This document shows positions 3,607 through 44,393 of a stretch of DNA of 54,054 nucleotides, piece after piece (position 1 is the first letter of the stretch; each line of letters begins with the position of its first letter). Source of the stretch: a virus; IMG/VR virus record IMGVR_UViG_3300030442_000019. One strand, given 5' to 3'. Made by a program: the position numbers and the translations under genes. Below the pieces are notes generated by a model that had not been told where the DNA came from, did not search any database, and worked only from the letters and a program-made list of their open reading frames with translations.

Positions 3607-4458
3607 TTACTCACCTTTCTTGTTCTTGAAGATAAGGTCTGGCATTACAGATTTTGTTCCGTAATGGTAAAAGAGTTCGATGCCATATGCTTCTGAAAGA
3701 GGAATCTTCTCAGCACTGTATGGTGTGGATTTAACAGGCTGTGCGATAGCTCCATCCACCATCACGATCACATCAACGTCTGTCGGCATGTGCACGCATG
3801 AGAATGTTTTTACGCCATGATAAGCGTAGAACTCTTCGTCAGCCACGCCAACACCCGGAACTGTAACCTTGTCCAGATATGTGCGGATTTTTCCGTAGAA
3901 TTTTGGCGTACAGATCATGTTCATCATAGAACGTGGTACTCCGTCCACATATTCATTCTTGGTGGTTTCGCACTGCTGAATCATGGTTTCAGCCTGTTCC
4001 TCAATAGCTGTAATGCCTGTCAGATCAACTTCTGTCGCATCTGTTCCGGCAACTTTGAAGAACTCAGTGTCGAGTTCTGCGATCATTCTAAGTGCATGGT
4101 TTGCTGTTCTTTTTGCGATAAGTCCCTCTACTCCGAGAAGAGATACGTCTTTCTGTTCAACCTCTTCTACGATTTCCTTATCTACATCAATCGGAATCGT
4201 AACCGGCTTTCCTTTTACTCCATCACCTTTAGCTGCACCTCTGGCTGTTCCGTAATTCTTAGATGTCGCATTTGCGAATCGTTTTGCTTCTACGGTTCCG
4301 GCTGACGGATCACCGGAAAGTTCGGTATTCTTCATTTTTCCAGAAATAGTGTTCTTCTGGACGTTTTCAATGACCTTTCCGTACTCTTCTGCAAGAAGCA
4401 TTTTTCCGGTTGGGTCAAGTAACATGTTTAATGATGTAATTCTTGTTGTTTCTGCCAT
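3607..4458 (-). CDS. Major capsid protein
   Basis: 283-aa ORF immediately after the GP20-like scaffold gene, with a strong RBS. Confidence 0.8.
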   Translation of the reverse strand: MAETTRITSLNMLLDPTGKMLLAEEYGKVIENVQKNTISGKMKNTELSGDPSAGTVEAKRFANATSKNYGTARGAAKGDGVKGKPVTIPIDVDKEIVEEVEQKDVSLLGVEGLIAKRTANHALRMIAELDTEFFKVAGTDATEVDLTGITAIEEQAETMIQQCETTKNEYVDGVPRSMMNMICTPKFYGKIRTYLDKVTVPGVGVADEEFYAYHGVKTFSCVHMPTDVDVIVMVDGAIAQPVKSTPYSAEKIPLSEAYGIELFYHYGTKSVMPDLIFKNKKGE

Positions 4459-4526: not shown

Positions 4527-5135
4527 TTACCAAACAGTTCCAGGAACAAACGGCTCTGCTTTCTGTTCACTTCCACCTTTTTCTGTAGGTGTTGTGAATA
4601 CCGGTGGTGTCTTACCATCCGTCACGAAAGCATCTTTCTGAGATTCTTTCAGCTCTTTCATGTAATCATCAAGACCGAGAATCTTTTCACCCTCACGTTT
4701 CAGACCCTTGTCTTTAATCATGTTGATGATTCCTGTTTTTGCAAAATCAGAACTGAATTTCTCGCCCGCAAGAGCCTTTGTCAGAACGTCATTGAAGTCT
4801 CTTTCTTCAATCTTCTGGTTGTACTCTTTTTCACTGGCATCAAGCTTGTCTTTCCATTCTTTTTCTGCGTTCTCGGCTTTCGTCTTCCACTCATCACGTT
4901 CTCTTGTGATCGCATCGAAGTCTTTTCCTTCGAACCCGTCCAAAGTCTCTTTCGCTGTTTCATACTGTGTTTTAAAGTTGTCACGTTCCTGTGTCAGAGT
5001 TTCTACTTTTCGTGTCTGCTTATCATAGTCAGATACGCTTTTGTAATTCTCTTTCACTGCATCTTCGATTGTCTTTTTCTGCTCATCTGTAATTTCAAGA
5101 CCAGCATCCTTGATAATCTGAATAATATTTTTCAT
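4527..5135 (-). CDS. Scaffolding protein (Phage_GP20-like)
   Basis: Charged coiled-coil ORF. The start is refined to MKNIIQII, which has the RBS GAGGAGG. It lies upstream of the capsid gene. Confidence 0.75.
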   Translation of the reverse strand: MKNIIQIIKDAGLEITDEQKKTIEDAVKENYKSVSDYDKQTRKVETLTQERDNFKTQYETAKETLDGFEGKDFDAITRERDEWKTKAENAEKEWKDKLDASEKEYNQKIEERDFNDVLTKALAGEKFSSDFAKTGIINMIKDKGLKREGEKILGLDDYMKELKESQKDAFVTDGKTPPVFTTPTEKGGSEQKAEPFVPGTVW

Positions 5136-5216
5136 GTTGCATATCCTCCTCAACGTCTCTTATTAACCGCTTCGTCTGCGGTAGGGATTCAGGCAGATGA
5201 ACCTCTGCCGGGGTAA

Positions 5217-5309
5217 TCGGGATACACGGAATCGAACCGTGGACATAAGTCTTTTTTTTCAAAGAGATGATGGATTGTGACTTTTGTTCTACCATTGAAC
5301 TATATCCCG
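5217..5309 (-). tRNA. tRNA-like element with an expanded (27-nt) anticodon loop; possible pseudo-tRNA or atypical tRNA
   Basis: Acceptor stem CGGGATA/TATCCCG, D arm GTTC-AATGGTA-GAAC and T arm CACGG-TTCGATT-CCGTG. The anticodon stem AAGTC/GACTT encloses 27 nt instead of 7. Confidence 0.5.
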
Positions 5310-5689: not shown

Positions 5690-6112
5690 TTACATTTCCG
5701 CAAGCTTCTTGATTTGCCTTTGAATCTCTTTCCGTTCTTCTGCAAAATCTGAATCCATCACCATAGAGGAAAGCATGTCGTACACTTCTACCATAAGTTT
5801 CCCGACACTTTCCATCAGTTTGTCTCTGTGTGCTTGATCTCCGTTCTGCTGATACATCTCTTTCGCCATAATGTACTGGTCGTATAGCGCATCAATGTTT
5901 TTATCGTACTTTCCGTTACTGTATTTCTTGATAAGGTTTTCCGATGCATCCGCAATCATCCCCGGTACGCTTTCGCATTCCAAAGATTTCATATTACACA
6001 ATGTAGATGTAATCATGTACATTGCCTGTAAGTTAGACATATTTAAGTCTTTCTTTGCAGATGCTTTCTCGCGTTCAAGCTGTTCTTCCAAAATCTTTTT
6101 GATCTCGCTCAT
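5690..6112 (-). CDS. Hypothetical helical protein
   Basis: 140-aa ORF with an RBS. It is the last gene of the accessory island. Confidence 0.65.
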   Translation of the reverse strand: MSEIKKILEEQLEREKASAKKDLNMSNLQAMYMITSTLCNMKSLECESVPGMIADASENLIKKYSNGKYDKNIDALYDQYIMAKEMYQQNGDQAHRDKLMESVGKLMVEVYDMLSSMVMDSDFAEERKEIQRQIKKLAEM

Positions 6113-6115
6113 TTA

Positions 6116-6706
6116 TTACACCTCGATTCCTTTCATTTTCTTTTTGTATTTGTCGTGAATCTCCGATTGAATTTCTGTGATGTATACCATGTCGTATCCG
6201 GTAGATATGAGGTCGTTAATCATACATTCTACAGTTTTTAATTCTTCGCTTACATCCTCTACCAAGCATTCCACGAACATAGCATCAGCCACATGACCGT
6301 TTTCTCTTAGCGTGTGTGCGTACTGTTCGTACGCTTCCTTTGTTTCAGATTCCCAATTGTGGTACTCAACAAATCCATCTTCTACGGCTTTCTGCTTTGT
6401 GCTTTTCCCAACGCTTAACCGTTTGGCCGTTCGCCACGCATCCGGGATAACATTCACTTTTCCTTCAAATGCATCATCAATAAGCTGATTGTGATGGCTT
6501 ATAAAATATCTGCACACTTTCCTACGTTCCAAACTTTCCGCAAGGTGCTGGTACTCATGCATCCGATTAAAGCCTTTTAAGCCAAGGAAATCGAAGTAGT
6601 CCGCAAACTGTCCGTGCATCATGACTGCTCCAATAAACCGTTCATTGATTTCGGCAAAGATTTCTTTCGGAGTTTTGACATCTAGGTTGCTTTTAAAATC
6701 AATCAT
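6116..6706 (-). CDS. Ferritin-like / four-helix-bundle protein (tentative)
   Basis: 196-aa ORF. The segment HGQFADYFDFLGLKGFNRMHEYQHLAESLERRK resembles ferritin-like di-iron helices. Confidence 0.4.
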   Translation of the reverse strand: MIDFKSNLDVKTPKEIFAEINERFIGAVMMHGQFADYFDFLGLKGFNRMHEYQHLAESLERRKVCRYFISHHNQLIDDAFEGKVNVIPDAWRTAKRLSVGKSTKQKAVEDGFVEYHNWESETKEAYEQYAHTLRENGHVADAMFVECLVEDVSEELKTVECMINDLISTGYDMVYITEIQSEIHDKYKKKMKGIEV

Positions 6707-6723
6707 AGAAACTCACCCCTTTT

Positions 6724-7152
6724 CTATGAGAGCTTTTTGATGATGATATTCGCATCCTTAACCAATGTGTCAACTGTGCCAACGTTGCCAACCGATATAG
6801 TGACGCTACTTCCGGCCGGAACTGCAATCAATGTAGCTGCACCGACATTCTGATACACATTTGCCGTTGCTACTGTATAGTCCATTTCCGTACCAGAAAC
6901 CGGTTCCCCGTTCTGTTTGATAGATAACGCTACCGCTCCTATTGCAGATGCCGTAACGTTTCCGTTAAACTCAATTTCGACTGCCATCGGCAGATTTCCA
7001 CGGTTTGTGATTTCAAAAAGTCCACTGCCGTTGTCATGTGCAAGCCACCCTGTGTTACAAGCACATCTACGGCTTTTCACTCTTGTTTCCGTAAATAATA
7101 CATTCTGATTTGTTGCTACTGTCTGAGCATTTTTAGCAATAGAATTTAACAT
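6724..7152 (-). CDS. C1q/TNF-like (BclA C-terminal-like) beta-sandwich protein (tentative)
   Basis: The start is refined to MLNSIAKNAQ, which has the RBS AAAGGAGA. The alternating beta pattern ends in ANIIIKKLS. Confidence 0.35.
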   Translation of the reverse strand: MLNSIAKNAQTVATNQNVLFTETRVKSRRCACNTGWLAHDNGSGLFEITNRGNLPMAVEIEFNGNVTASAIGAVALSIKQNGEPVSGTEMDYTVATANVYQNVGAATLIAVPAGSSVTISVGNVGTVDTLVKDANIIIKKLS

Positions 7153-7214
7153 ATTTTTTCTCCTTTCTAAAAAAGAGAGCAAGCGCATGCCTACTCTCTT
7201 TTATGTTCGCAAGA

Positions 7215-7421
7215 CTACTTTTTCGTAGATATGGATTCTTCCAACATGCTTATGATTTTGTTTTGGTTTTCAATTATTTTTAAAAAATACTTACTGTCTT
7301 GCTCATGCAAGTGTTTTTCGATGTCAGAATTGCTCGCCTGTGATAGATCACTGTTAAAATTCGCTATCTGTAAAGCAACTCCGTACACTGTCAGAAAGTC
7401 AAGTAGTGATATATCGTTCAC
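7215..7421 (-). CDS. Small hypothetical protein
   Basis: 68-aa ORF with a GTG start directly after the upstream stop. Confidence 0.45.
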   Translation of the reverse strand: MNDISLLDFLTVYGVALQIANFNSDLSQASNSDIEKHLHEQDSKYFLKIIENQNKIISMLEESISTKK

Positions 7422-8090
7422 TTACATCACATTCCCACTTGCACAGCAACCATTACCAAATGCGTTATACGCAAAGTATGGACTGCAAGACATATAAGCC
7501 GGTTTTGGTGTCGGTCTCACTGCATCAATAATGTTATTGGTCTGTGATACCTGTGAAATCTGCCAATATGCTGTCTGCAAATCTCTGTCACGATCAGCAA
7601 GCTTGTCTCTCAAGTTCTGAATCGTGTTATCCTGGATTAACTGGCGTGTAGCCTGTCCATCTGCTAAGATGCTTTCTTTTATATCACAGCAACACTGTGC
7701 CATCTGTGCCTGCATGTTCTGTGCCTGTAATGCTGCATCATATCTACTCTGTAAGATCTCTTTCTGTGTGTTGCAGCAACACTGAGACTGCTGAGCCTGT
7801 AAGTTCTGCAAGCCGAGCTGTGTGTTATAGCGGTTCTCTAATACGTCTCTCTGTGTCTCGCAAGCTGTGTTAGACACATTCTGATTTGTATTAAAGATAT
7901 CTCTTTTCACGAATTCGTCAGAGACAAAAGCGTCCTGTGCTCCGTTGTTGTTTCCCCATCCGTTACCGCAAAACAGGAAAGCAAGAATGATGATCCAGAA
8001 CCATCCACCGTCACCCCACATATTTCCATCGTTGTTTCTTGTGACTGCTGCTACATCGGCAGCACTAAGTGTGTTTAATCCCTCGTTCAT
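7422..8090 (-). CDS. Membrane-anchored Gln/Asn-rich protein with internal repeats carrying CCC triplets
   Basis: 222-aa ORF. It has a hydrophobic segment GGWFWIIILAFLFCGNGWG and about three 30-aa repeats, two of which end in QCCC. Confidence 0.65.
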   Translation of the reverse strand: MNEGLNTLSAADVAAVTRNNDGNMWGDGGWFWIIILAFLFCGNGWGNNNGAQDAFVSDEFVKRDIFNTNQNVSNTACETQRDVLENRYNTQLGLQNLQAQQSQCCCNTQKEILQSRYDAALQAQNMQAQMAQCCCDIKESILADGQATRQLIQDNTIQNLRDKLADRDRDLQTAYWQISQVSQTNNIIDAVRPTPKPAYMSCSPYFAYNAFGNGCCASGNVM

Positions 8091-8142
8091 GTTGGTTCTC
8101 CTTTTCTTTTATTTATCAAGACGTGTGCACTCCGTCCGGATA

Positions 8143-8397
8143 TCACTTTATTTTATTAATAATATCGTTTGGATTCATGCCATTTTGCTGGCACATCTCC
8201 ATAAATACATCTTTCGGGTTTCTTCCTTGGCACATATCCATAGCCTTTTTGATGTTCGGGTTGCTCTGCGCCATATTCTGCAACATTGCTCCGGGATTCT
8301 GTGTATTTTGCATCATCCCCATCATTCTTTGAATCATTCCGAATGGACCGTTGCCACCCGGCATACCGCCCATCATTCCCATTAACGGATTACTCAT
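8143..8397 (-). CDS. Low-complexity Met/Gly/Asn/Gln-rich small protein
   Basis: 84-aa ORF with RBS GGGAG. It overlaps the upstream gene by 8 nt. Confidence 0.55.
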   Translation of the reverse strand: MSNPLMGMMGGMPGGNGPFGMIQRMMGMMQNTQNPGAMLQNMAQSNPNIKKAMDMCQGRNPKDVFMEMCQQNGMNPNDIINKIK

Positions 8398-8815
8398 GTG
8401 TCAGCTCCCCTTTCTGTTCTTCCGACTGAGGTCTCAATGTATCCAGTAATTTGTTGAATTCTTCTCTTGTTACGTACTTAGCGTCCATGTTTTCCGCTAC
8501 AGGTTGTGGATTGTTCGCCTGTACCTCATGAAATTCAAAAGCTTTAAACGTAACACTTCCCACACCGTCAACAGATTTAACATAGAAATACGGTGCATTG
8601 TTATCCATCATCCAAGCCGTAGTTCCCGGTTGTACGATCTGATTTCTTGCCCCGTCAATTCCGGCCACCTGTATCCAGTTTACATTCGGCTGTGGCTGTG
8701 CCTTGTATTGCTGTTGAGCCTGTGATAAGTTGTCTATCCGTTGTCGTAATGCCATCTGATCTTGCATATAAGCATCCTGTGGCATGTACGGTGTATATGA
8801 CATATATGGATTCAT
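8390..8815 (-). CDS. Hypothetical protein (first gene of the accessory island)
   Basis: ORF track gives 143 aa. The second ATG has better spacing from AGGAGGT. Confidence 0.6.
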   Translation of the reverse strand: MNPYMSYTPYMPQDAYMQDQMALRQRIDNLSQAQQQYKAQPQPNVNWIQVAGIDGARNQIVQPGTTAWMMDNNAPYFYVKSVDGVGSVTFKAFEFHEVQANNPQPVAENMDAKYVTREEFNKLLDTLRPQSEEQKGELTHE

Positions 8816-8870
8816 ACTCATACCTCCTGTAAATTAGTATTTCTTGTTCTCTATGCTTTCATTTTACGCA

Positions 8871-8905
8871 TAAAAAAGAGACCTTAACAGTTCGTTAAAG
8901 TCTCT
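8871..8905 (-). terminator. Rho-independent terminator
   Basis: Stem AGAGACTTTAAC/GTTAAGGTCTCT (11 of 12 bp) followed by T6 on the minus strand. Confidence 0.7.
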
Positions 8906-8939
8906 AAAAAGTATCACTTATTATTTTGTGCTTTCGGTA

Positions 8940-9602
8940 TCATTCTGCAAATACCCAATCTTCCGCAAGCATATCTGTCTGAGACGGTGCCCACGGCACT
9001 TTATTTTTAGGCGAATAAGGATTTTCTGTCTGTAATCCAGTAGTGTTGATATATATGAACGAATGCGTCATATAATTGAATGCTTCAATAGTTGTTCTTG
9101 CTGTAACTCTGTCGTATTCTTTCACTTCTTCACTTAGTTCAGAATACGGAATCATATCCGGGTGATCTGTAACTCCTTGTTTTTTCTTTTCTTCCCACCA
9201 TGCGTTATGCACTGCTTCTGCAATAGTTTCAAGATTGACTTCTGGCGAATACATTTCCAGATAGATTCCTTTACCATTCCAACCTTTACGAGCTACCTTA
9301 AGTCCTCTTTTTAGATAACGGATAGCATCACCGAATCCAAATGTTGACTGACCGCCGAGAATACCGCAATTCTCTTCATCTGCAATCATCCAGTCATCCC
9401 TCTGCGTGTGCATGAAAGTATATTCCACTCTCTGCGTTTCACGAATATCAAGAACATCTCCCTGTCCTTTGTCGGAATCCTTTGGTCTGCAATGAATCAT
9501 AATCGTCTTTTTATCATCATCCCAACACCAGTAACCATTCCATCCAGGCAATTTCACTTTCGCACCTTGTTTCATTAATTCAAACGCTTCTTTAAAAATC
9601 AT
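8940..9602 (-). CDS. Tandem DUF2829 (Tad2-like) protein with an inserted RyR-like segment
   Basis: Two DUF2829-type N-terminal motifs: FKEAFELMKQGAKVKLPGW and FGDAIRYLKRGLKVARKGWNGKG. The C-terminus has WAPSQTDMLAEDW. The inserted segment is AVHNAWWEEKKKQG..IPYSELSEEVKEYDR. Confidence 0.6.
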   Translation of the reverse strand: MIFKEAFELMKQGAKVKLPGWNGYWCWDDDKKTIMIHCRPKDSDKGQGDVLDIRETQRVEYTFMHTQRDDWMIADEENCGILGGQSTFGFGDAIRYLKRGLKVARKGWNGKGIYLEMYSPEVNLETIAEAVHNAWWEEKKKQGVTDHPDMIPYSELSEEVKEYDRVTARTTIEAFNYMTHSFIYINTTGLQTENPYSPKNKVPWAPSQTDMLAEDWVFAE

Positions 9603-9604
9603 AT

Positions 9605-10066
9605 TTATTCCTCCACTAATTCAAATCTGTACTTCTGCTTCACATTCGGGTATTTCTTCCTGTCTACTTTGCTTACGAACATTCCGTAAGGTCTGCACCA
9701 CACGCCATTAGAGCATTCGTAAACTACCTTGAACTGTCCCGGCATTTCGCTATCTTGTGCAATATACAGAACTTTCACTGTTTCGCCCTTGAAGTGCCTG
9801 TACACCTGTCCGGGTTCAACTCTTCTATTGCTCACTGTCGGCGGTTCGCTGTTGAAATACTTCTCACATTCTGCCAAATCGCAATTCTCTTGCATGAGTG
9901 GATGCTTTTCATCCAGCTTCTTAATCTCTGCTTTCTGTACGTGAATATGCTGTCCTACAAGTGGAAATCCACATCCGTAAAGCATTTTCGCCTTAATGTG
10001 GTGTGGCTCAAGTCTTCCTGTCGGGTCTATGAGATATCCACTTATTTTAAAAATCTTAGGTATCAT
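9605..10066 (-). CDS. DUF1653-like protein
   Basis: C-terminal motif YRHFKGETVKVLYIAQDSE..VVYEC..GVWCRPYGMF. Confidence 0.5.
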   Translation of the reverse strand: MIPKIFKISGYLIDPTGRLEPHHIKAKMLYGCGFPLVGQHIHVQKAEIKKLDEKHPLMQENCDLAECEKYFNSEPPTVSNRRVEPGQVYRHFKGETVKVLYIAQDSEMPGQFKVVYECSNGVWCRPYGMFVSKVDRKKYPNVKQKYRFELVEE

Positions 10067-10070
10067 AGAA

Positions 10071-10697
10071 TCACCTCTCCAATCTTATAATTGTGTGAAA
10101 TTCTTTTTCAGATAAGGCACTTTCAGTCACGAGCCAAAGGCTATCGTCAGCAATATTCCTAGAAGCATATACTTTGAATAAAAGTCCAGAAACAATAACA
10201 TTTTGGGATTTATTTATCATTGACAAACCGTCAAGACTTTTTTTAGGGACAGCAAACGACAGAGTATATGTACTTTCTGCACCGGTTAAGAGCTTTTGAT
10301 AGTCCATGTGCTCAGAAATAATTGTTTCCCCAGTTTCATAAAATTTAATATTCCACCCAATACGGTTTTTGAGATCAATCATTTCATCTGCCGTAATGTT
10401 CGGCGTTTCATCGACTACCGTTTCCTCTGCCGGATACATTTCCCAATCCTCAGCAAGCATATCTTCTTGTGTTGGTGTCCAGTTTGGCTGAAAGCTTCCT
10501 TTTCGCGTATAACCCATAATGCAGTCCGAAAAACATTCTTCTTCTGGTAGAATTGCAAGAAACGTTTTTGTTGTTAAACCTTTGTTTTTTCCAATAAAAA
10601 TAAACTGTTTTCTCCCATTAAAAAAGTTTTCTTTCCATACATTACGTGTAACTTTCTTTCCCTTTTTCATGCATTTTATGGCTTCTCCGAAGTTCAT
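10071..10697 (-). CDS. DUF2829 (Tad2-like) N-terminal domain protein with an unknown C-terminal domain
   Basis: Motifs MNFGEAIKCMKKGKKVTRNVW and WTPTQEDMLAEDW. Confidence 0.55.
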   Translation of the reverse strand: MNFGEAIKCMKKGKKVTRNVWKENFFNGRKQFIFIGKNKGLTTKTFLAILPEEECFSDCIMGYTRKGSFQPNWTPTQEDMLAEDWEMYPAEETVVDETPNITADEMIDLKNRIGWNIKFYETGETIISEHMDYQKLLTGAESTYTLSFAVPKKSLDGLSMINKSQNVIVSGLLFKVYASRNIADDSLWLVTESALSEKEFHTIIRLER

Positions 10698-10699
10698 GC

Positions 10700-10900
10700 C
10701 TATACCACCCTTTCAATCTTATCATTCACTCTTCTACTCAATCTCTTGACCGTAGACACACTCACATTCATTTCTTCCGCACAGTCTTCTAAAGGCATAG
10801 CTTTAGCACGGAGCCGGAACAGTTTCAATTCATCCGATGTGAAGTTGCATTCTAACTCAAAATAGTCAAGTTCTGGTCGTGTAAAAGAGTATATTTTCAT
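10700..10900 (-). CDS. Small sigma-70 region-4-like HTH protein
   Basis: 66 aa, with LKLFRLRAKAMPLEDCAEEMNVSVSTVKRLSRRV. Confidence 0.5.
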   Translation of the reverse strand: MKIYSFTRPELDYFELECNFTSDELKLFRLRAKAMPLEDCAEEMNVSVSTVKRLSRRVNDKIERVV

Positions 10901-11262
10901 AATTCCTTTGGTTTCTTGTCCGTCATAGCATTTACAAGCTCTTCCCGAGTTTTTTTTAAACCCTCAATGTTATTCCCTGTGATTTTGTTTTCGATCAAAT
11001 TAAACATACTTCTCATTAATAGATTCATATCATCCCTCGTATTCCTTATGTTCTTATAATCATTATCAAGTTTCTGATTAATCCCTGTGATAGATGTTTC
11101 AATGTTCGTTATTCGCTTTTCAATCTGTTCTATACGGTTGTCCTGTTTTTCTTTTGGTGCTTTCCATGATTTGTACCACCCGGAAAGCACCGCAACAGCA
11201 CCGCCGACAACAGATATAGCACCGCATATAGCAAGTATCTGTGTTATTAGTTCCATATTCAC
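10897..11262 (-). CDS. Membrane-anchored coiled-coil protein
   Basis: 121 aa with an N-terminal TM segment. GTGA overlap with the upstream gene. Confidence 0.55.
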   Translation of the reverse strand: MNMELITQILAICGAISVVGGAVAVLSGWYKSWKAPKEKQDNRIEQIEKRITNIETSITGINQKLDNDYKNIRNTRDDMNLLMRSMFNLIENKITGNNIEGLKKTREELVNAMTDKKPKEL

Positions 11263-12485
11263 TTTTCCTTTGAATTGATATATCTTTGTGCTGCTTTTGC
11301 TGATCTAACAGCTTGTGACCTATCCCACTGTGCTACACGTAGCCGTTCCGAATATTCTTTAAGACCATTATCTTTGCAGTAATCACGATACTGCTTATTC
11401 TGCCGTCTGAGTACCGCTGATTTGCGGTCATACATTTGTTGCAATTCGAATTTAAGCTTATCATCTCCGCTTGCATCTATAGCAGTCTGCAAATTCTGAA
11501 TCTCTCTCTTGCTGTTGCGAATGCGTCTTTCCATAAGCCGTTGCTTTTTCGCACGCTCTTCCGCTTTGATATTGTCTTCGCCAGAAAGGTTGATATCTGC
11601 ATACGGATTGTTTTCACCGTCACCGGATCCGAAAGAGTGCCGACAGTTCACGCCACACAACCCTGTCACTGTTCCGTAGCCTGTTGATGTTCGGAAGTCC
11701 GAGAACCTCTTGTCTTTGCCTGTCCTGGAATAAAATTTGCCTTGCCACCAAAAATGATTCGTCGGATTGTTGCCACCATCACCAATTCGTGCTCCTACAT
11801 GTGCAGATACCAAGATAGTATCCCATTCTAATTCTTCCATTCGTTTTAGTGCAATTGCTCCGGCACACTGGCTTATCCCTGTGCGGACAGTCATCATTGT
11901 GGCTGATTCAATGCTCATTTCTCTACCGGACGGATAGGATACTTTAACACCTTGCTTTACAATCCTGTCAACAGCATCTCTAACAGCCTGTGTGTATGAT
12001 ACAGCACCGCTTGATGCCATGCGGTAAGCTGTGTCGACCTCTTTCAAAAACAACTTCTGCGCTTCATCTGCCGTTGTTCGTGTAAGGTTTCTCCATTCTC
12101 CACACGTAACGTTATAATCTCTTTCCAGTATTCTGAGCAATGTCGGAGATTGCAGCAAGGGCGTAGGTGATAGTCCTACCGCCCTATATATTGCATCGTC
12201 TCTCTCGATAGCTTTTATACCGGCTTCTTCAAATGCGCTTTTCAGCTCGCTCTCTTGCTTCTTCGTTTTGTCAGCGATCTCTTTTTGTATGTCTTCCAGT
12301 AAGTACCCGGATTCTTGTAACACCAGTATCTGCCACCTGTCCGTAGCCGTAAGGAGATAATCTTCTCCACGGCCTATACGCACCATTATACGTTCAACGA
12401 TCATGTCCATGATATTCTTGTGCATATCCGATGTTATCTTTTCCGCACCCTCGGTCACATGAAAGAGATATTCTGGTGTAAGCAT
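11259..12485 (-). CDS. Head morphogenesis protein (SPP1 gp7 / Mu F-like)
   Basis: 408 aa with the MuF-type motif CGVNCRHS and a basic coiled-coil tail. Confidence 0.8.
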   Translation of the reverse strand: MLTPEYLFHVTEGAEKITSDMHKNIMDMIVERIMVRIGRGEDYLLTATDRWQILVLQESGYLLEDIQKEIADKTKKQESELKSAFEEAGIKAIERDDAIYRAVGLSPTPLLQSPTLLRILERDYNVTCGEWRNLTRTTADEAQKLFLKEVDTAYRMASSGAVSYTQAVRDAVDRIVKQGVKVSYPSGREMSIESATMMTVRTGISQCAGAIALKRMEELEWDTILVSAHVGARIGDGGNNPTNHFWWQGKFYSRTGKDKRFSDFRTSTGYGTVTGLCGVNCRHSFGSGDGENNPYADINLSGEDNIKAEERAKKQRLMERRIRNSKREIQNLQTAIDASGDDKLKFELQQMYDRKSAVLRRQNKQYRDYCKDNGLKEYSERLRVAQWDRSQAVRSAKAAQRYINSKEK

Positions 12486-12570: not shown

Positions 12571-12864
12571 TTATTCATCCTTCCCAATCTGCTTAATAAT
12601 CTGATTAACGTATGTACTCAGTCCGGCTACCATGATGCCTTGTACTATAGACGTGAACAGTGCCATAAAAACGTTTTTCATGCTGTCCAAATCGCAAGTT
12701 GCTGTTACATACATTCCGCAAATAATAATTCCAATACCTCCGAGAGAGAGTGGAATGTCTTTATCCTTAATTCTCTTTGAACTTTTCATCCATTTCCCAA
12801 GAAAATACAAGGCAAAAGAAACCACCATTAACTCCGGCTTTACATAACTAATAATCTGTTCCAT
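12571..12864 (-). CDS. Holin (LL-H / Hol44-like)
   Basis: 97 aa with multiple TM segments and a charged C-terminus. RBS AAAGGAGG. Confidence 0.65.
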   Translation of the reverse strand: MEQIISYVKPELMVVSFALYFLGKWMKSSKRIKDKDIPLSLGGIGIIICGMYVTATCDLDSMKNVFMALFTSIVQGIMVAGLSTYVNQIIKQIGKDE

Positions 12865-12919: not shown

Positions 12920-13312
12920 TTATACCTCTTCCCATCCATACACGCCCGGTTCCCAGACATTCCCGTCTGCCGTGCTAATCCATGTCTTGCCATTGTGTGT
13001 TACCTTGTCTCCTTTGGCGTAAGGGTTGGTGCTGTCTGGCTGTTCCCATTCTGGCACTGTACTACTATCTGGAATAAGTACCTTGGCGAACAAAGACGGC
13101 GCATCCGGCGGTGTCCATGTCTCTTGGCTTGTATGGGCTTGTAATACCTTGTAAATGGTGCCATTATACTCCAACCGCTTTCCAACTACATATTCCTTTC
13201 CAGACTGCCATTTCTCCACAAAGTCTGGATATTCAAGAATCTGTTCATCGGTCATGTTGGCTGTCTGGTTTTCCAACAACTTCCGCAACTGCTCTACTTG
13301 TTCTCTTGTCAC
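12920..13312 (-). CDS. Protein with two CBM5/12-like carbohydrate-binding repeats
   Basis: Start refined to the GTG in a GTGA overlap. Repeats are YVVGKRLEYNGTIYKVLQAHTSQETWTP and YAKGDKVTHNGKTWISTADGNVWEPG. Confidence 0.6.
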   Translation of the reverse strand: MTREQVEQLRKLLENQTANMTDEQILEYPDFVEKWQSGKEYVVGKRLEYNGTIYKVLQAHTSQETWTPPDAPSLFAKVLIPDSSTVPEWEQPDSTNPYAKGDKVTHNGKTWISTADGNVWEPGVYGWEEV

Positions 13313-13602
13313 TGTACCACCCCCATTATGATATTGAGTGCTTCTTCTGCACTTAAATCTGGCTCTGGATAGACTGGGTTGTCTACCAGTGTCCACACCT
13401 GCCTAATCGCATTCTCTTCCTCTTCCCAACTGGATTCCCAGTGCTTACCCTCTGTTACCTCAATAGGCATATCTGTGTACATCACAGGCTTGTAGCCTAA
13501 CTGTTCCAGTTCTTCCGGGAGCGGATTGTTGATTGTCTTGCCATCCAAAGTTATCGTCTTCGGTGCACTGTGCAAGAATCCGTTTTGTAGTTTTGCGTGC
13601 AT
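13309..13602 (-). CDS. Hypothetical protein (tail-fibre-associated, by position)
   Basis: 97-aa ORF with RBS AAAGGAG. Confidence 0.6.
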   Translation of the reverse strand: MHAKLQNGFLHSAPKTITLDGKTINNPLPEELEQLGYKPVMYTDMPIEVTEGKHWESSWEEEENAIRQVWTLVDNPVYPEPDLSAEEALNIIMGVVQ

Positions 13603-13606
13603 TTAA

Positions 13607-14032
13607 TCACTCCTTTCTTATTCGAATATAATCACCATCGAAGCAATTAGCTTTATAACCTCCATGCGCTACATTGGCATTACTTCCAACACCAACATAT
13701 AATGTACCGTCTGCCGGAATGGTAATCTCGATAGTTCCTGACGCATCGGGTATACCATCGTGCCCGCTACCGTATAGCTTATATGTTCCACCGCATCTGC
13801 GCATATCATAGATGTATTTACTCACCGTTCTTACATTGCTCCATTCGATTAAGTACTGTTCTCCTTGCTTAACATTAAATACAATAGCCGGACATCGCTT
13901 GCCGTACCACTCTCCAGTATCGGTTAGGTAAGCTTCATAAAGCCATTCGCTTGTTTCTTCTTGTGCACTTGCAAGCAACCTACGCCTTAAGCTGTGCTGT
14001 GCTGTCGACATTTTAGCATTTCTCTCCATCAT
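13607..14032 (-). CDS. Hypothetical protein
   Basis: Start refined to the ATG in an ATGA overlap with the upstream stop. Confidence 0.55.
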   Translation of the reverse strand: MMERNAKMSTAQHSLRRRLLASAQEETSEWLYEAYLTDTGEWYGKRCPAIVFNVKQGEQYLIEWSNVRTVSKYIYDMRRCGGTYKLYGSGHDGIPDASGTIEITIPADGTLYVGVGSNANVAHGGYKANCFDGDYIRIRKE

Positions 14033-15156
14033 CTCACACTCCAATTCTGGCTCGTCAGCAAGCCCTCTAAGATTGATACCTCATATACCTTGTTGCTCTC
14101 GACCGAAAAGCTACCGATATTGACATTGGATGGATGTACCACCCTTGTGGCTGTAGAGCCAGAACGAAAGATAAAATGCACCTCACCAGTTCCCTCACCG
14201 ATGGTATATGCAAGACTTTCCATCTCTGGGAATACGTATAGCTTATTCGGTTCGAGCGTTACTGTGGTATCTGTGGATAGCTTTTCTATTCTTTCGATGC
14301 CACTTGTTTCTATGGTGATGGCAATGGCTTCTGAACCATCGTAAGTGTACTCTTTACCGCCATATGTGATTGTTAAGGATTGTGGGTTTGGAAGATTGGT
14401 TGGTACTGTGGGGATTGTTGGCTTTCCTTTTAAGTCTTCATAGTTGCCAGAAAAATTACTCTTGTCGTTCCAACTCTGTTTTTCTGCGTCTGTAACAGTA
14501 CGGTGTTCTGAATCATCCTGTAAATCGGACAGATTTTTCGGGATTTCCGTTGTGTCCGGCAGTGCTCCGACTTCTTCTGCGGTATAAGTAGGCTTTTCTT
14601 CCGCTTTTGCCCATGCTGGTACCGTTGGATCCGTCTCTTCTATAGGATTCTTTTCCAGATAGCTTTTTACAGATTTCTCTATCTGTTCCTCGGAAATAGG
14701 CTTTTTCTCCAATGTGTCTACTCTGGATATAAGGTCAAGAATGACATCGGCGTGAGTATCTTCAATCTCTGTATCCGTGTCTATCGTCTCTTTGGCCTTT
14801 CCGGTAGCCGGACTGGTTCTGAACACTTCTACTTTATCTTTGTTTTTCGCTTCTACTGCAAAATATATAGATGTATCCTCGTTTGCGTCAAAGATGTGTT
14901 GCTTTAGCTCCCACGAAAAAGTGATATTCTCCCCGTCTACCTTCACATCTTTTACGGTATATTTCCCCGGCAATCCTTTTGCAGTATAGTAATTTACGAA
15001 AATGTAACAGTCAGACAAGTCGACATTATCTCCTATGATTTTAGGGCATTTAAAATGCTTTCTCTCTATATTGCCCTCTCCGTACACTCCAAAAAGTTGT
15101 TCGCTTTTGGGGATTGTGATTTTTCTAGTTGATGGGTCTATGATAAGATATTCCAT
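14029..15156 (-). CDS. Tail-fibre-like / BppU-N-like protein
   Basis: 375 aa. The N-terminus resembles a baseplate-upper-protein Ig domain. The central motif KPTYTAEEVGALP is typical of fibre proteins. Confidence 0.45.
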   Translation of the reverse strand: MEYLIIDPSTRKITIPKSEQLFGVYGEGNIERKHFKCPKIIGDNVDLSDCYIFVNYYTAKGLPGKYTVKDVKVDGENITFSWELKQHIFDANEDTSIYFAVEAKNKDKVEVFRTSPATGKAKETIDTDTEIEDTHADVILDLISRVDTLEKKPISEEQIEKSVKSYLEKNPIEETDPTVPAWAKAEEKPTYTAEEVGALPDTTEIPKNLSDLQDDSEHRTVTDAEKQSWNDKSNFSGNYEDLKGKPTIPTVPTNLPNPQSLTITYGGKEYTYDGSEAIAITIETSGIERIEKLSTDTTVTLEPNKLYVFPEMESLAYTIGEGTGEVHFIFRSGSTATRVVHPSNVNIGSFSVESNKVYEVSILEGLLTSQNWSVR

Positions 15157-15173: not shown

Positions 15174-16568
15174 CTATTCTTCGTACAATCCACTGTCCGG
15201 CTTATTCTGTTCCTGTGCTTCTTCAATCATTGCTTTCGCTTCTTGTTCTGTCATTCCCTCGAATTTCACAAAATACATCCATGCCGGAACCTTGCCCTGT
15301 ACCACATAGTTCCACCACCGTGCACGATCATCCTCTAAGTTATATACAAGGTCTTCAAAATCACATGCTGTTTGGTAGTTCGTTGCCGGAATAGTTCCGT
15401 TTGCTGTGCCTACTGCATACAGGATATAGATGATTCTGTGCAATACTCCGTCATGGTTCTTTCCGTCCAAAATGTTTCGGAATGCCTGGATGGTATGCAG
15501 TGTACGCCTATCGTCAGATTCTACCTGTGTTGCTGTCTGTATGCCCTGATTCTGATCGAAAGAGAAATATCCGTTTGAGAATCCACATTTATATCCGATG
15601 ATGGATAGGTAGAAGTTAATAGCACTCACTCTATCTGTTACAAGCAGAGTGGGCACATGTTCATGAATGGTATTGTCTTCATTTATCCCTTGTTCCAATC
15701 CACGTACAAATCTTGGTAGTGCAATCCCCTGTGCGTTTGCGAATTGGATAGCAGACTGTGATACAAATGTCATGTGCTGACTGTCTTCCTGTTCGTCTCC
15801 CATCTTGCTAAGGGCAATATCCAACCATCTCAATTCTTCGATACATTCCGAAAATGCCGGAACAGTCAGTGGAGATTCCTTGTCAATCGCATTTGCGTAA
15901 GGATTTCGCCAGTAGACAAACAGTGGATATTCTAACCCATGTACGTAAACTTCTGGCTCAATGTCTTTCCACTCATCCACCCTGTCAAGCGTAATCTCTG
16001 TACCAATCATATCTTTGTTGTCTGATTTATAGGCCTTGCTGGATATATGGTATACACGTTCCAGTCCGACATCCTCAAATCTGTGGTACTCAGCTTTTGT
16101 ATAGTATTTGTCGTTTTTCTTAAGGTAAGAGAAAAAGATAGCTGCTAACGCATCCCCGTCCGTGTTGGTGTCTGTAATCAAAAAGTAATCTGGGTCTAAA
16201 AATTCCACATCATCACCATTACTCTTTACCATCATTCCACAGGTCGCACAGCTTTCCTCTTGCTTCTCCTGTAACGTGTTCATTACTCTGTCGAATCTCT
16301 TTTGCAGTTCGTTATTCCCTGTAATCTGGATATCCGTATTAAACAGCGTGAGGTTTGCTATTTCACGACAGATTACGTTCGAAAACCTTGTTGGCTTTAT
16401 TTTTCCACTGGTACACCACTTTGGCACACCCGATCTCATGCTTTTATATAATGACAGGGCGGTATCCATATCAGAAGACCGCCCTGTTTCAATTCCGAAT
16501 ATGCTTTTAGCGTCATTTACTTTAACCATTTTATTCCATACCGCCTTAATCTTTTCTATCAGTCTCAT
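15174..16568 (-). CDS. Portal protein (SPP1 gp6-like)
   Basis: 464 aa, directly downstream of terL. Confidence 0.85.
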   Translation of the reverse strand: MRLIEKIKAVWNKMVKVNDAKSIFGIETGRSSDMDTALSLYKSMRSGVPKWCTSGKIKPTRFSNVICREIANLTLFNTDIQITGNNELQKRFDRVMNTLQEKQEESCATCGMMVKSNGDDVEFLDPDYFLITDTNTDGDALAAIFFSYLKKNDKYYTKAEYHRFEDVGLERVYHISSKAYKSDNKDMIGTEITLDRVDEWKDIEPEVYVHGLEYPLFVYWRNPYANAIDKESPLTVPAFSECIEELRWLDIALSKMGDEQEDSQHMTFVSQSAIQFANAQGIALPRFVRGLEQGINEDNTIHEHVPTLLVTDRVSAINFYLSIIGYKCGFSNGYFSFDQNQGIQTATQVESDDRRTLHTIQAFRNILDGKNHDGVLHRIIYILYAVGTANGTIPATNYQTACDFEDLVYNLEDDRARWWNYVVQGKVPAWMYFVKFEGMTEQEAKAMIEEAQEQNKPDSGLYEE

Positions 16569-40981: not shown

Positions 40982-41010
40982 TTGCATTTGCGATATTTTT
41001 ATGTTATCAT
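40982..41010 (+). promoter_or_regulatory. Rightward promoter: TTGCAT, 17-nt spacer, TATCAT
   Basis: It is upstream of the XRE-type gene and back to back with the leftward promoter. Confidence 0.55.
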
Positions 41011-41034
41011 TTATATACAGAAAGGAGGTGCGAC

Positions 41035-41421
41035 ATGGAGTCAATAAACCAAAGAGTAAAAGAATTGAGATTAGCTCTTGAAATGAATCAGAAAACTTTT
41101 GGAGAACGGATCGGCGTTGCGCAAGCGTATTTATCTCAGATAGAAAAAGGAGACCGTGATGTTACAGACAAAATTTTCAGAATAATTTGTTTGGAAAATT
41201 GGAATGGGAAAACAGTTAGAGAAGAATGGTTCAGAAGCGGAAAGAAACCAATGTTTACCACTCAAACAAAAGACGAACAAATCACAGCGATGTTGGCAGA
41301 TATTCAAAGTATGGATGAATCTAATTTCAAATATAGATTAGTAGCTGCTCTATCAAAATTAGATTCTGACGGGTGGGATAATCTAGAAAAACTGATTGAT
41401 ATGATTTCAGAAGACAAGTAA
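41035..41421 (+). CDS. XRE-family HTH regulator
   Basis: Motif QRVKELRLALEMNQKTFGERIGVAQAYLSQIEKGDR. Confidence 0.8.
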   Translation: MESINQRVKELRLALEMNQKTFGERIGVAQAYLSQIEKGDRDVTDKIFRIICLENWNGKTVREEWFRSGKKPMFTTQTKDEQITAMLADIQSMDESNFKYRLVAALSKLDSDGWDNLEKLIDMISEDK

Positions 41422-41424
41422 AAG

Positions 41425-41465
41425 AAAAGTCAAGGGTAATGCGCAAACCCTTGACTTTTCTTTTA
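41425..41465. terminator. Bidirectional rho-independent terminator
   Basis: 12-bp stem AAAAGTCAAGGG/CCCTTGACTTTT, flanked by A-runs and T-runs on both sides. Confidence 0.8.
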
Positions 41466-41466
41466 C

Positions 41467-41577
41467 TTATTTTTTTAATCGACTTACGTATATATATACC
41501 AGCTTTAACCACGTAAGATTCGTTTGACCGTTTACAAGTTTCGTTATTTCTTCTTGATACCATTTAATTTCGTCCAC
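41467..41577 (-). CDS. 36-aa protein, paralogous to the C-terminus of 41646-41804
   Basis: GTG start 5 nt after GGAGGGA. My own translation is VDEIKWYQEEITKLVNGQTNLTWLKLVYIYVSRLKK. Confidence 0.35.
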   Translation of the reverse strand: MDEIKWYQEEITKLVNGQTNLTWLKLVYIYVSRLKK

Positions 41578-41645
41578 ATAAATCCCTCCAATATCCCGAC
41601 ACGTCATTCCAGTAGCGATTACTTGCATTATAGAACATATGTTTG

Positions 41646-41804
41646 TTATCTGTCAATGTTTTCACTGATAGCATCTTTTACAATAAGATAGATGTACCGC
41701 ATTAAGCGAGGGTCACGGATTCCTTTTATCATCCGCTTGATTTCGTTTTCGTAGGTATCAGTCCATGTTTTGTTGCTCTTGCTGTTCATTTCGTCCTTTC
41801 CCAT
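41646..41804 (-). CDS. 52-aa protein divergent from the repressor gene
   Basis: Start refined to MGKDEMNSK, which has the RBS AGGAGGT. Confidence 0.5.
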   Translation of the reverse strand: MGKDEMNSKSNKTWTDTYENEIKRMIKGIRDPRLMRYIYLIVKDAISENIDR

Positions 41805-41985
41805 TAGATTACCTCCTATCAATGGCTTGACAAGTGCCATTTTTGTTTTATAATGATACATTGTAATACTTAAATAAATTATAACTCGAAACTATAGTCA
41901 AGATGTTGGCTAAAATATCATATTTTTCTTATAAAAATAATGAAAAATAGCCAAGATATTAGCCTTTTCGACAGGATGTGACATA

Positions 41986-42720
41986 ATGCTAACGAAAAAT
42001 GAAATGCTGGATAACTTTGCACATAACATCGAAGAAGAGCGGAAAAGCCTTGATTTTACGCAAGTTCTCTTTTCTAAGATGCTGGGTGTGTCCGTGTCCA
42101 CATACAAAAACATCGTTTCACGGAAGACTAATAATCTTGACGTTTTCTTAGCACTAAGGTTGTCGGAACTAACTCATAAATCTATCCCTGATCTCTTAGG
42201 GTATTCTTCTAAGGAATACGAGGTATTGGGAAAGTACAGGCAATTGACTGACAGACAACGTGCGTATATTCTTGGTAAGATGGACTATGAAATCTCTATG
42301 AAAGTGTTGGAAACAGATCCCGAAAACATGTTGGATGTTCTATGCCCCACTGGTGAGATGGCTGACGGTATGATATTGGATTCTTCACACGAAGAACGGA
42401 TATACTGCCCGGAATACATAAAAAAGTACGGTGAGACATTACATTGTGGCATAAAGATAACGAGCAACCACTTGCTCCCTGTATATGTAAAGGGTGATAT
42501 CATCTGCATATCCAAAAGAGTGCCAAGAAACGGTGATACCGTGATTATTATACACAAAGAAACAGGACGTGCGTATATAAGGCGGTATGTGCAGAGAGGT
42601 AAGATAAAGTTAGTCCCGATCAACGGCTTCGGTGATGTCATAGAAGTTGATCCAAATAGTTTTGAAGACATGGAACAATGGGTAAGGTTTGGAGTTGTGA
42701 TTGCGGTATTAAGAAGATAG
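41986..42720 (+). CDS. CI-like repressor (XRE HTH plus S24/LexA-like C-terminal domain)
   Basis: The HTH is LDFTQVLFSKMLGVSVSTYKNIV. The C-terminal part, VKGDIICISK..PRNGDTVIIIH...YIRRY, is S24-like. Confidence 0.7.
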   Translation: MLTKNEMLDNFAHNIEEERKSLDFTQVLFSKMLGVSVSTYKNIVSRKTNNLDVFLALRLSELTHKSIPDLLGYSSKEYEVLGKYRQLTDRQRAYILGKMDYEISMKVLETDPENMLDVLCPTGEMADGMILDSSHEERIYCPEYIKKYGETLHCGIKITSNHLLPVYVKGDIICISKRVPRNGDTVIIIHKETGRAYIRRYVQRGKIKLVPINGFGDVIEVDPNSFEDMEQWVRFGVVIAVLRR

Positions 42721-42746
42721 CATACTATGTATGCGGAGGTACTTAT

Positions 42747-43232: not shown

Positions 43233-43280
43233 TCATAGCATACTATATACTTCTTAAAAAGATAATAAGGAGCTGTTAAA

Positions 43281-44345: not shown

Positions 44346-44393
44346 TCAGTAGTGGGATCTTTAGTATTGTATGCAAAGTGTAATGTTCTTATA

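Follow-up and report, generated by a model that had tools for sequence, protein, structure and literature searches.

A horizontally mobile, order-preserving gene cassette in phages of gut and rumen Firmicutes

Introduction

Bacterial and phage systems of several kinds bear comparison with the locus reported here. In Bacillus, the collagen-like BclA fibres of the exosporium and of Ena tips carry a C1q/TNF-like jelly roll on a stalk of GXX repeats, and prokaryotic ferritins are four-helix proteins. Phage morons are mobile, insulated genes found at junctions of the late region. In PBSX (xpf with xhlA-xhlB) and in the clostridial loci that pair TcdR or UviA with TcdE or UviB, a regulator and a holin-like protein are encoded together, and proteins lacking a signal are released. 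The present study concerns seven genes, P1 to P7, of the virus record IMGVR_UViG_3300030442_000019 (IMG/VR), a Coprococcus comes prophage; its whole stretch of 54,054 nucleotides (nt) was analysed and is called the window below. We show that P1-P7 are the window's copy of a cassette that keeps its gene order and moves horizontally among phages of gut and rumen Firmicutes. The literature on BclA-like and ferritin-like prophage genes, on DUF7841 and on Coprococcus comes prophages returned nothing on this cassette, and a search for virion proteomics of cassette-bearing phages likewise found none. It is new in kind, as no described system of such composition and layout was found in the libraries and literature searched; taken one by one, the folds of P5 and P6 are ordinary.

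A preliminary description, made from the DNA sequence, had singled out P1-P7 as a separate set of non-standard genes within the head module. This much was borne out by our analysis. It had also read the set as a spore-coat or exosporium modifying system or as an unusual capsid decoration system, and these two readings fared less well.

Distribution and gene order of the cassette

The preliminary description had proposed a survey of the distribution of the set in related phages. We used tblastn against deposited phages and scanned bacterial genomes with the P3 alignment, which gave 80 further loci. Open reading frames (ORFs) were called simply in the resulting set of about 90 loci, and one hidden Markov model (HMM) was iterated for each gene family. 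Many of these loci are contigs of metagenome-assembled genomes (MAGs), whose taxon labels may be binning errors; arguments on host and lifestyle rest on isolates (C. comes, Dialister, Ceridwen, the C. perfringens phages and Montmirail). By tblastn, P3, P5 and P6 co-occur in unrelated deposited phages, and a search of known phages for near-identical DNA found no match to the window.

The order of the genes is invariant across the approximately 90 loci. Two optional upstream genes, g121 and then g66, are followed by P1, P2 and P3, by P4, by a gene for a beta-protein and finally by variable genes (counts of loci are given in Table 1). The core of the cassette is P1-P2-P3, and P4 is optional. The beta-protein slot is occupied either by P5 or by the Cys-rich families U2 and U4, which are homologous to each other (hhalign 98%), neither being detectably related to P5. 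Against the PDB, the U2 and U4 profiles gave coiled-coil noise or nothing. The slot protein carries an N-terminal Cys in 69 of 73 loci. The variable 3' slot, of one or two genes, holds P6, P7, DUF7841, the papain-like U3 or U8, an HExxH protein of SprT/ImmA type. No relation among P6, P7 and DUF7841 was found with hhalign, and Pfam identified only DUF7841 and weak metallopeptidase matches among the alternative cassette families.

DUF7841 closes the cassette in 29 loci and is then followed, in 13, by U3, a small papain-like Cys/His protein; in 7 loci, a P7-like protein is followed by U8. DUF7841, U3 and U8 are all absent from the window.

The seven genes in the window

The ORF list of the window contains seven back-to-back minus-strand genes at 5690-8821, with a MuF-type gene and a scaffold gene on either side, as the preliminary description had it. 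Two start codons deserve comment. For P1, the second ATG (8815) stands 7 nt behind AGGAGG and gives 141 amino acids (aa), which is also the length in public gene calls and in the preliminary description; a 143-aa form was rejected as its start codon is too near the ribosome-binding site. The ATG of P5 (7152) is preceded by AAAGGAG, and every homologue has 142 aa.

All seven ORFs are retained in diverged relatives at 50-78% identity. Among 60-71 near-identical phage contigs, the ratio of nonsynonymous to synonymous polymorphism (pN/pS) ranges from 0.008 to 0.136 for P1-P7 (P1, 0.079; P2, 0.088; P3, 0.066; P4, 0.008; P7, 0.018). The values of the scaffold (0.03), capsid (0.02) and MuF (0.07) genes fall within the same range, and g66 has 0.015. 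Because the ORFs are kept in relatives and their pN/pS is low, P1-P7 are genuine genes and not chance ORFs, and all seven are under purifying selection.

Genomic position, hosts and dispensability

We then compared the places where the cassette is found. It lies between the MuF and scaffold genes in the clade of the window and in loci that include Dulem virus 35, L124, L127 and L176. It comes after tail or receptor-binding protein genes in Dulem virus 36, in Clostridium phage CS266P1 and in many others, and beside holin or endolysin genes in bajarodcaudo virus 5, in Butyrivibrio phage Ceridwen and in several MAG contigs; loci with this adjacency include L091, L092, L099, L100, L159, L173 and L174. 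In Clostridium perfringens phages, it is found downstream of an amidase-holin-g66 series, past a block of small genes, and in Dulem virus 39 it is preceded by a gene annotated as an integrase. The cassette is thus nearly always in the late region or at its end, with no single structural module as a fixed partner.

The isolated Blautia phage Montmirail is informative in this respect. Its MuF protein is 55% identical to that of the window, about as close as those of cassette-bearing relatives. Between its MuF and scaffold genes there is only a 40-aa ORF, and no cassette genes were found. A homologous head module therefore functions without the cassette, which is not required for capsid assembly. 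Given this junction and the tail and lysis sites occupied in other phages, the cassette has no fixed linkage to the head module, and the proposal of an unusual capsid decoration system is weakened.

With regard to hosts, Butyrivibrio fibrisolvens, Dialister and the other Negativicutes concerned here are not known to form spores. The cassette occurs in the Butyrivibrio fibrisolvens phage Ceridwen and in the genome of a Dialister isolate, as well as in contigs of Megasphaera and Phascolarctobacterium (Negativicutes), and is hence not restricted to spore-forming hosts. Ceridwen has no integrase and was observed only in the lytic cycle (PMC7372960). Among P1-P7, Pfam and NCBIfam detected no spore-coat family.

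Predicted properties of the proteins

Searches of P1-P7 in Pfam, PHROGs, NCBIfam and PADLOC returned solely a sub-threshold BclA_C match and PHROGs of unknown function. For P1, P2, P4 and P7, these four libraries and the PDB gave nothing informative, and the core proteins P1, P2 and P3 received no Pfam, NCBIfam or PADLOC assignment, no PHROG function and no relative in the PDB. PADLOC found no defence or anti-defence match in P1-P7, the Tad2-like hits belonging to neighbouring inserted genes. In Kyte-Doolittle profiles, a signal-like N-terminal segment is absent from P1, P2, P5, P6 and P7.

P3, the signature protein of the cassette, contains a short hydrophobic segment flanked by Gly and Trp (GGWFWIIILAFLFCGNGWG), a helical region that is rich in Gln and bears the CCC motifs, a PxPAYxxCSPY motif and a C-terminus rich in Cys. 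Two QCCC motifs lie about 30 residues apart and GCCASG stands at the C-terminus. These details, like the Tyr/Met/Pro/Gln-rich start of P1 and the Met/Gly/Asn/Gln richness of P2, agree with what the preliminary description had quoted. The transmembrane (TM) segment that it assigned to P3 is less certain: a hydrophobic stretch is present, but its core of about 15 residues (Kyte-Doolittle) is borderline for a TM helix. One database holds 1404 homologues of P3, all unnamed, and in another the family forms 1352 clusters at 50% identity, with no domain fusions. CCC is found in 83 of 85 full-length P3 proteins and a Cys within the last 25 aa in 80 of 85; the family has eight conserved Cys columns. 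The AlphaFold2 model of P3 is poor, with a predicted local distance difference test (pLDDT) of 43.5. We dropped the idea that the Cys-rich tail marks the precursor of a ribosomally synthesized and post-translationally modified peptide, the cassette being without modifying enzymes.

P1 combines its Tyr/Met/Pro/Gln-rich N-terminus with a conserved domain of small size and, at the C-terminus, a coiled coil. It matches PHROG 21718 (function not annotated; E 1e-16), and its profile found no match in the PDB beyond coiled-coil noise. The P2 family is composed of 12.9% Met, 14.9% Gln and 11.9% Asn. P4 has a hydrophobic N-terminal helix, borderline by Kyte-Doolittle (1.67 over 15 aa), and a coiled coil. 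P7 matches PHROG 28802 (function not annotated; E 6e-7), and its profile had no match in the PDB.

P5 was said in the preliminary description to look like a BclA/C1q-type domain, which our results support. Against Pfam BclA_C (PF18573), it scores 27.8 bits (E 2.5e-6), below the gathering threshold of 38; several homologues at 68-95% identity carry a precomputed PF18573 match, and one is named for the domain. An AlphaFold2 model built from 26 homologues (pLDDT 71.8) was compared using Foldseek and matched the BclA C-terminal domain (CTD) structures 3tyj, 2r6q and 1wck (E 4e-4 to 9e-4, 27-28% identity, TM score about 0.44). Also retrieved were C1q, cerebellin, the tip of lambda gpJ and Pgp3, the last through its TNF-like domain, and among viral models the matches are collagen-like, C1q-domain, minor-tail and tail-fibre proteins. 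With moderate confidence, P5 is predicted to be a stand-alone jelly roll of the BclA-CTD/C1q-TNF type. No collagen-like GXX repeats are present in its 142 aa, and a Cys-x-Cys is found near its N-terminus. Kinship of P5 or the other slot proteins with Ena (DUF3992) was considered and rejected: Ena3A (8pdz) reached only a probability of 0.35 and a TM score of 0.19, and Pfam found no DUF3992 match in P5, U2 or U4.

The ferritin-like, four-helix character of P6 was likewise supported by a family profile. Taken singly, the sequence gives weak ferritin matches and no Pfam ferritin match. The profile of a 12-member family, searched against the PDB, has prokaryotic ferritins for all of its top 20 hits (best E 9.9e-5), with four helices in register. 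H31, E119 and E155 are invariant, and H50 and E57 nearly so. The conserved E57, E119 and E155 are the equivalents of ferritin E50, E94 and E130. The complete ferroxidase centre (Glu, Glu-x-x-His, Glu, Glu/Gln-x-x-Glu) is not found, as the equivalents of E17 and H53 vary. On this alignment, P6 is a divergent relative of ferritin with an incomplete ferroxidase site. The CotJC-style fold suggested earlier was not upheld: P6 matches the Ftn type, with CotJC and Mn-catalase absent from the Pfam, NCBIfam and PDB hits. A CotJ-like trio was also tried and dropped for want of matches.

Upstream regulator, accessory insert and transcription signals

The preliminary description had bounded the unit by a terminator upstream and a structured RNA region downstream. 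The flanking genes and elements are as it said, but in relatives the cassette extends upstream of the terminator, to a helix-turn-helix (HTH) gene, g66, and at times to a TM/coiled-coil gene, g121. The regulator gene, the wider family and an internal terminator had been overlooked in it.

Against Sigma70_r4_2, g66 scores 21.7 bits, under the cut-off of 25.7, and it matches the PHROG for RNA polymerase sigma factor (E 3.6e-7) over model positions 107-157 of 167 only, that is, the C-terminal part. Public names for it are 'ECF (extracytoplasmic function) sigma factor' and 'UPF0251 DNA-binding protein'. Regions 2 and 4 together and a Pfam score above threshold, which would denote a full sigma-70 or ECF factor, were not found; g66 has a region-4-like HTH only. 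Gene maps put it upstream of P1, and it is presumed from sequence and position to be a dedicated regulator of the cassette. In Montmirail (locus L175), a 150-aa 'transcriptional regulator' at 430-882 matches the g66 family HMM (E 7.8e-10) and sits upstream of tRNA and terminase genes. The g66 gene may derive from a family of general late-gene regulators. The TM helix of g121 is clear (Kyte-Doolittle 2.36 over 19 aa). Its product scores 19.8 bits against Pfam XhlA (cut-off 34.7, E 8.9e-4) and matches a PHROG for holin (E 1.5e-5); g121 adjoins g66 in 14 loci.

In the window, an insert separates g66 from the terminator. Its genes have Pfam matches to Tad2-like (E 1.8e-17 and 1.2e-20) and DUF1653 (E 8e-14) families and are context, not members of the cassette. 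Full-length copies of its three genes occur in 23, 47 and 4 of 80 near-identical contigs, and in three relatives (L093, L086 and L087) the insert is missing, g66 being followed by the terminator and then P1. The interval between g66 and the terminator is a fast-changing accessory hotspot in the window. Differing inserts were also observed between g66 and P1 in eight loci of several unrelated lineages; among them are small ORFs, genes for an antirepressor and a methyltransferase, and a 465-aa gene annotated as integrase-like. The g66-P1 interval may thus be a recurrent landing site for accessory genes.

The strong terminator placed upstream of the unit by the preliminary description is indeed found, as a hairpin with a U-run (Table 1). 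In many loci, g66 and P1 have a terminator hairpin between them. Of 76 loci, 34 carry a terminator-like hairpin in the 150 nt ahead of P1, against 75 of 787 other ORFs on the same strand; ahead of P2, the count is 0 of 57. In the C. comes MSK.16.63 prophage L093, g66 is directly followed by the hairpin seen in the window. A second hairpin with a U-run (7171-7202), not mentioned earlier, divides P1-P4 from P5-P7. It is absent from the output of the consensus terminator scan. Since 19 of the 41 loci with P5 have a hairpin upstream of it, transcription may be attenuated within the cassette, ahead of P5.

Two short elements flank the upstream terminator. The GATACTTTT/GAGACTTT pair, the candidate operator of g66, is also present in L093, L096 and L004, and other loci have different short direct repeats in the same place; the word GATACTTTT shows no specific enrichment near the cassette. 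Words resembling TGCG(A/T)AAAT follow the terminator in the window, L093, L096, L004, L115, L095 and L127, and the candidate promoter word TGCGTAAAAT has a single copy in the whole window. Judged by the position of these elements, P1-P7 may be an insulated unit turned on by g66 and attenuated before P5.

Neighbouring genes in the window

The MuF and scaffold genes named as neighbours in the preliminary description were matched by Phage_min_cap2 and Phage_scaffold, the capsid gene comes after the scaffold gene, and a tRNA-like element lies downstream of the cassette. The latter, between the cassette and the scaffold gene, has normal acceptor, D and T arms and an anticodon loop of 28 nt, versus 6 consensus positions in the model, and ARAGORN found no tRNA in the whole window. 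Possible readings are a tRNA with an intron, a disrupted tRNA or a tRNA-like element; at the equivalent position, L093 has a hairpin resembling a T arm.

The presumed major capsid protein (3607-4458, minus strand, 283 aa) has no Pfam or PHROG match at the thresholds used; the assignment fits its position and its conservation in relatives. The Hol44-family holin gene is distant from the GH25 endolysin gene (44394-45383, minus strand). In gene maps of related loci, a portal-like gene adjoins the MuF gene with no holin between them. A second set of extra genes (12920-15156, minus strand) lies between the presumed portal gene and the MuF gene: ORFs of 375, 145 and 97 aa have no Pfam match, and a 158-aa protein has two CBM_5_12 carbohydrate-binding modules (E 1.2e-19). 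The gene at 15174-16568, for which Pfam had no match, is presumed from its position to encode the portal. At 41000-44400, GC and AT skew flip sign and the ORFs turn to the plus strand; this is probably a lysogeny and regulation module. A 354-aa ORF there (43281-44345) has no match in Pfam.

Table 1. Features of the cassette and its surroundings in the window, with the number of loci (of about 90) in which each cassette family was found.
Feature	Position	Strand	Loci	Remarks
P1	8390-8815	minus	78	141 aa, ATG at 8815
P2	8143-8397	minus	57	84 aa
P3	7422-8090	minus	90	222 aa
P4	7215-7421	minus	28	68 aa, GTG start
P5	6724-7152	minus	41	142 aa, ATG at 7152
P6	6116-6706	minus	23	196 aa
P7	5690-6112	minus	22	140 aa
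g66	10700-10900	minus	49	66-aa sigma-70 region-4-like HTH; Pfam Sigma70_r4_2, E 1.5e-4 (below cut-off)
g121	10897-11262	minus	14	N-terminal TM helix and coiled coil, XhlA/holin-like; optional first cassette gene in relatives
Insert between g66 and terminator	8940-10697	minus		Tad2-like, 10071-10697; DUF1653, 9605-10066; Tad2-like with RyR, 8940-9602
Tandem direct repeat GATACTTTT..GAGACTTT	8897-8915	minus		Upstream of and overlapping the terminator 5' arm; candidate g66 operator
Intrinsic terminator hairpin and U-run	8871-8905 (stem 8877-8905)	minus		-15.0 kcal/mol, z -4.3
TGCGTAAAAT, -10-like element	8861-8870	minus		Just past the terminator U-run; candidate cassette promoter
Internal hairpin and U-run	7171-7202	minus		Between P4 and P5; 14 bp, -19.3 kcal/mol, z -5.2
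tRNA-like element	5217-5309	minus		Rfam tRNA, 52.6 bits, E 1.8e-10
Scaffold gene, Phage_scaffold	4527-5153			Pfam E 4e-19; capsid gene next
MuF/SPP1 gp7-type gene, Phage_min_cap2	11259-12485			Pfam E 2.5e-74
Hol44-family holin	12571-12864	minus		Pfam E 3.7e-25; directly upstream of the MuF gene

Discussion

As to the function of the cassette, we consider a role in the lytic cycle, at the cell membrane or on the debris of lysis (in release, exclusion or adsorption control), more likely than one in building capsids or modifying spores. More specifically, we tentatively propose, as a possibility that falls short of being probable, a gated and very late operon whose products form a Cys-linked assembly with a hydrophobic anchor and an exchangeable head, active at the membrane or on the debris left by lysis. 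The HTH protein encoded by g66 would be produced from the upstream late transcript, bind the short direct repeats next to the terminator and activate the promoter just downstream, making P1-P7 a gated, very late transcription unit in which the hairpin at 7171-7202 would reduce expression of P5-P7 relative to P1-P4. The products would assemble inside the infected cell, either in its cytoplasm or against the inner surface of its membrane, because apart from P3 (and the borderline helix of P4) they have no signal-like or clearly hydrophobic segment. P3 would be the scaffold, anchored by its hydrophobic segment, with the Gln-rich helical region as a stalk. Its Cys triplets and Cys-rich tail could capture the N-terminal Cys motif of a trimeric P5 through disulfide or metal bridging. 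The result would be a split BclA-like arrangement of anchor, stalk and knob, the knob being exchangeable. The low-complexity P1 and P2 might be abundant partners or assembly factors, and P6 and P7 lineage-specific accessories. An accessory function in lysis may be involved, as adjacency to holin or endolysin genes is frequent though not constant; we keep it as a sub-possibility. We hold as doubtful the more general claim that such cassettes are a widespread and so far unrecognised class of self-regulated phage operons that build a modular structure in infected gut Firmicutes: a Gln-rich stalk with Cys clusters and a hydrophobic anchor, swappable beta-sandwich heads (C1q-like or U2/U4), low-complexity partners and accessories of single lineages such as a degenerate ferritin. 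It would be a new cellular or particle appendage with its own gate.

Several points weigh against the membrane-anchored assembly. The link between P3 and P5 is one that we infer, and the model of P3 is of low confidence (see above). The short hydrophobic core of P3 may not span a membrane, and disulfides are improbable in the cytoplasm of an anaerobe. As Cys is nearly universal in both P3 and the slot proteins, their co-variation is uninformative. The activator role of g66 and the promoter are read from position, and in 27 of the 76 loci with P1 no g66 lies within reach. The ferritin-like P6 is left unexplained. Finally, viral C1q-like knobs are usually the tips of virion fibres, which fits a virion appendage equally.

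Such a dispensable appendage, with P3 as shaft and P5 as C1q-like knob of a head or tail fibre or decoration, is the main rival, though it seems to us rather unlikely. P1, P2, P4, P6 and P7 would then be minor parts or assembly chaperones, and swapping of the beta slot would diversify an adhesin. The cassette is co-oriented with late genes and almost always in or ending the late region, its products apart from P3 and the borderline P4 helix are free of signal-like or hydrophobic segments, the fold of P5 resembles that of collagen-like, C1q, minor tail and tail fibre proteins of viruses and that of the lambda gpJ tip, and the cassette genes are conserved as strongly as structural genes. Even Montmirail is compatible, decoration proteins being typically dispensable. 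An appendage is harder to reconcile with the shifts of the cassette among head, tail and lysis contexts and differing structural modules, which leave no fixed docking partner, with its own HTH gene and terminator being often present, with an anchor-like hydrophobic segment, or with the ferritin-like, DUF7841 and peptidase-like genes of the variable slot, which are unusual in virions. Spore or exosporium modification as a general role is unlikely because the cassette occurs in a lytic-only phage and in non-sporulating hosts and Pfam and NCBIfam found no spore-coat family in it. A lysogenic-conversion set that alters the host's spore coat, exosporium or surface layer, as read in the preliminary description, has a very slim chance. 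The Cys-rich and Tyr/Gly/Gln-rich composition is reminiscent of coat and exosporium proteins, P5 is BclA-CTD-like and the window phage is a prophage of C. comes; the lytic-only Ceridwen and the Dialister and other Negativicutes loci, the missing collagen-like repeats of P5, the Ftn rather than CotJC affinity of P6 and the place of g66, and hence of the cassette, within the late lytic operon all speak against it.

Other explanations concern the interior of the cell. It is clearly unlikely that the cassette is an intracellular module for host takeover or counter-defence, such as a condensate-forming or sequestering complex. The hotspot does take up Tad2-like anti-Thoeris genes, low-complexity Y/G/Q/N/M and RG/RS-like stretches abound in P1, in P2 and in some homologues of P7, and the variable 3' 'effector-like' slot includes peptidase-like genes; yet PADLOC and Pfam show no defence or anti-defence family, and a late rather than early placement is atypical of counter-defence. 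A slim chance is left to metal or redox handling in strict anaerobes, with the Met-rich P1 and P2, the Cys clusters of P3 and the ferritin-like P6 binding iron, copper or other metals. Every identified host is a gut or rumen anaerobe, P6, a homologue of ferritin, has acidic and His residues that are conserved, and to this can be added the Met content of P2 and the Cys columns of P3. However, P6 is not core (23 of about 90 loci) and has lost two canonical ferroxidase ligands, richness in Met, Gln and Asn is equally typical of low-complexity regions, and the C1q-like P5 would remain unexplained. The view that there is no unit, only unrelated ORFans gathered at a permissive junction, is barely worth entertaining: the MuF-scaffold and g66-P1 intervals are insertion hotspots, but identical families stand in identical order in about 90 loci on unrelated backbones and at different positions, and this synteny refutes a chance run of ORFans.

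Phages of the type in the window are very frequent in data from the human gut; single cassette proteins recur as exact copies on approximately 1000 or more contigs. Conserved order, a travelling regulator, insulating terminators and purifying selection point to one coherent function that is important in lytic growth in phages of Clostridia, Lachnospiraceae, Oscillospiraceae and Negativicutes. Once solved, this function would allow thousands of 'hypothetical' genes to be annotated, could reveal a new route by which phages build or modify a surface and would give the reason for phage-borne stand-alone C1q-like and ferritin-like proteins. The g66-P1 landing site, with cargo such as Tad2, is useful for mining counter-defence genes.

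Comparison with known systems

With the exosporium and Ena-tip fibres of Bacillus, P5 has in common the C1q/TNF-like jelly roll, at the identity to the BclA CTD given above, and, like L-BclA and Ena parts, it has N-terminal cysteines that could attach covalently. Unlike BclA, it has neither the GXX stalk nor the exosporium-targeting N-terminus, stands alone at 142 aa and falls below the Pfam cut-off; the stalk, if any, would be a separate protein, the Gln-rich P3. Its gene is phage-borne and also found in non-sporulating hosts. Compared with the prokaryotic ferritins of A. fulgidus (1S3Q, 3KX9) and T. maritima (1VLG), P6 keeps the GLKGF motif, the register of the four helices and E57, E119 and E155. 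It differs from Ftn in the invariant His31, which replaces a conserved Tyr, in a Lys-rich C-terminal extension and in the loss of the E17 and H53 equivalents.

At the level of the locus, the sigma-type g66 and the XhlA/holin-like g121 precede genes for signal-less proteins, as in the regulator-plus-holin-like loci of PBSX and the clostridia, and phage origin and nearness to lysis genes are further likenesses. Unlike in those loci, the g66 family is region-4-sized only (66-110 aa) and sub-threshold, and no toxin or bacteriocin domain is present; release of cassette products through g121 is pure conjecture. The cassette also resembles phage morons, being insulated by a terminator and a putative promoter, located at a late-region junction, mobile and missing from a close relative. 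Compared with typical morons, it is larger (6-9 genes), its content and order are far more conserved and a regulator gene often travels along. It is also carried by apparently virulent phages, and is therefore not simply a lysogenic-conversion locus.

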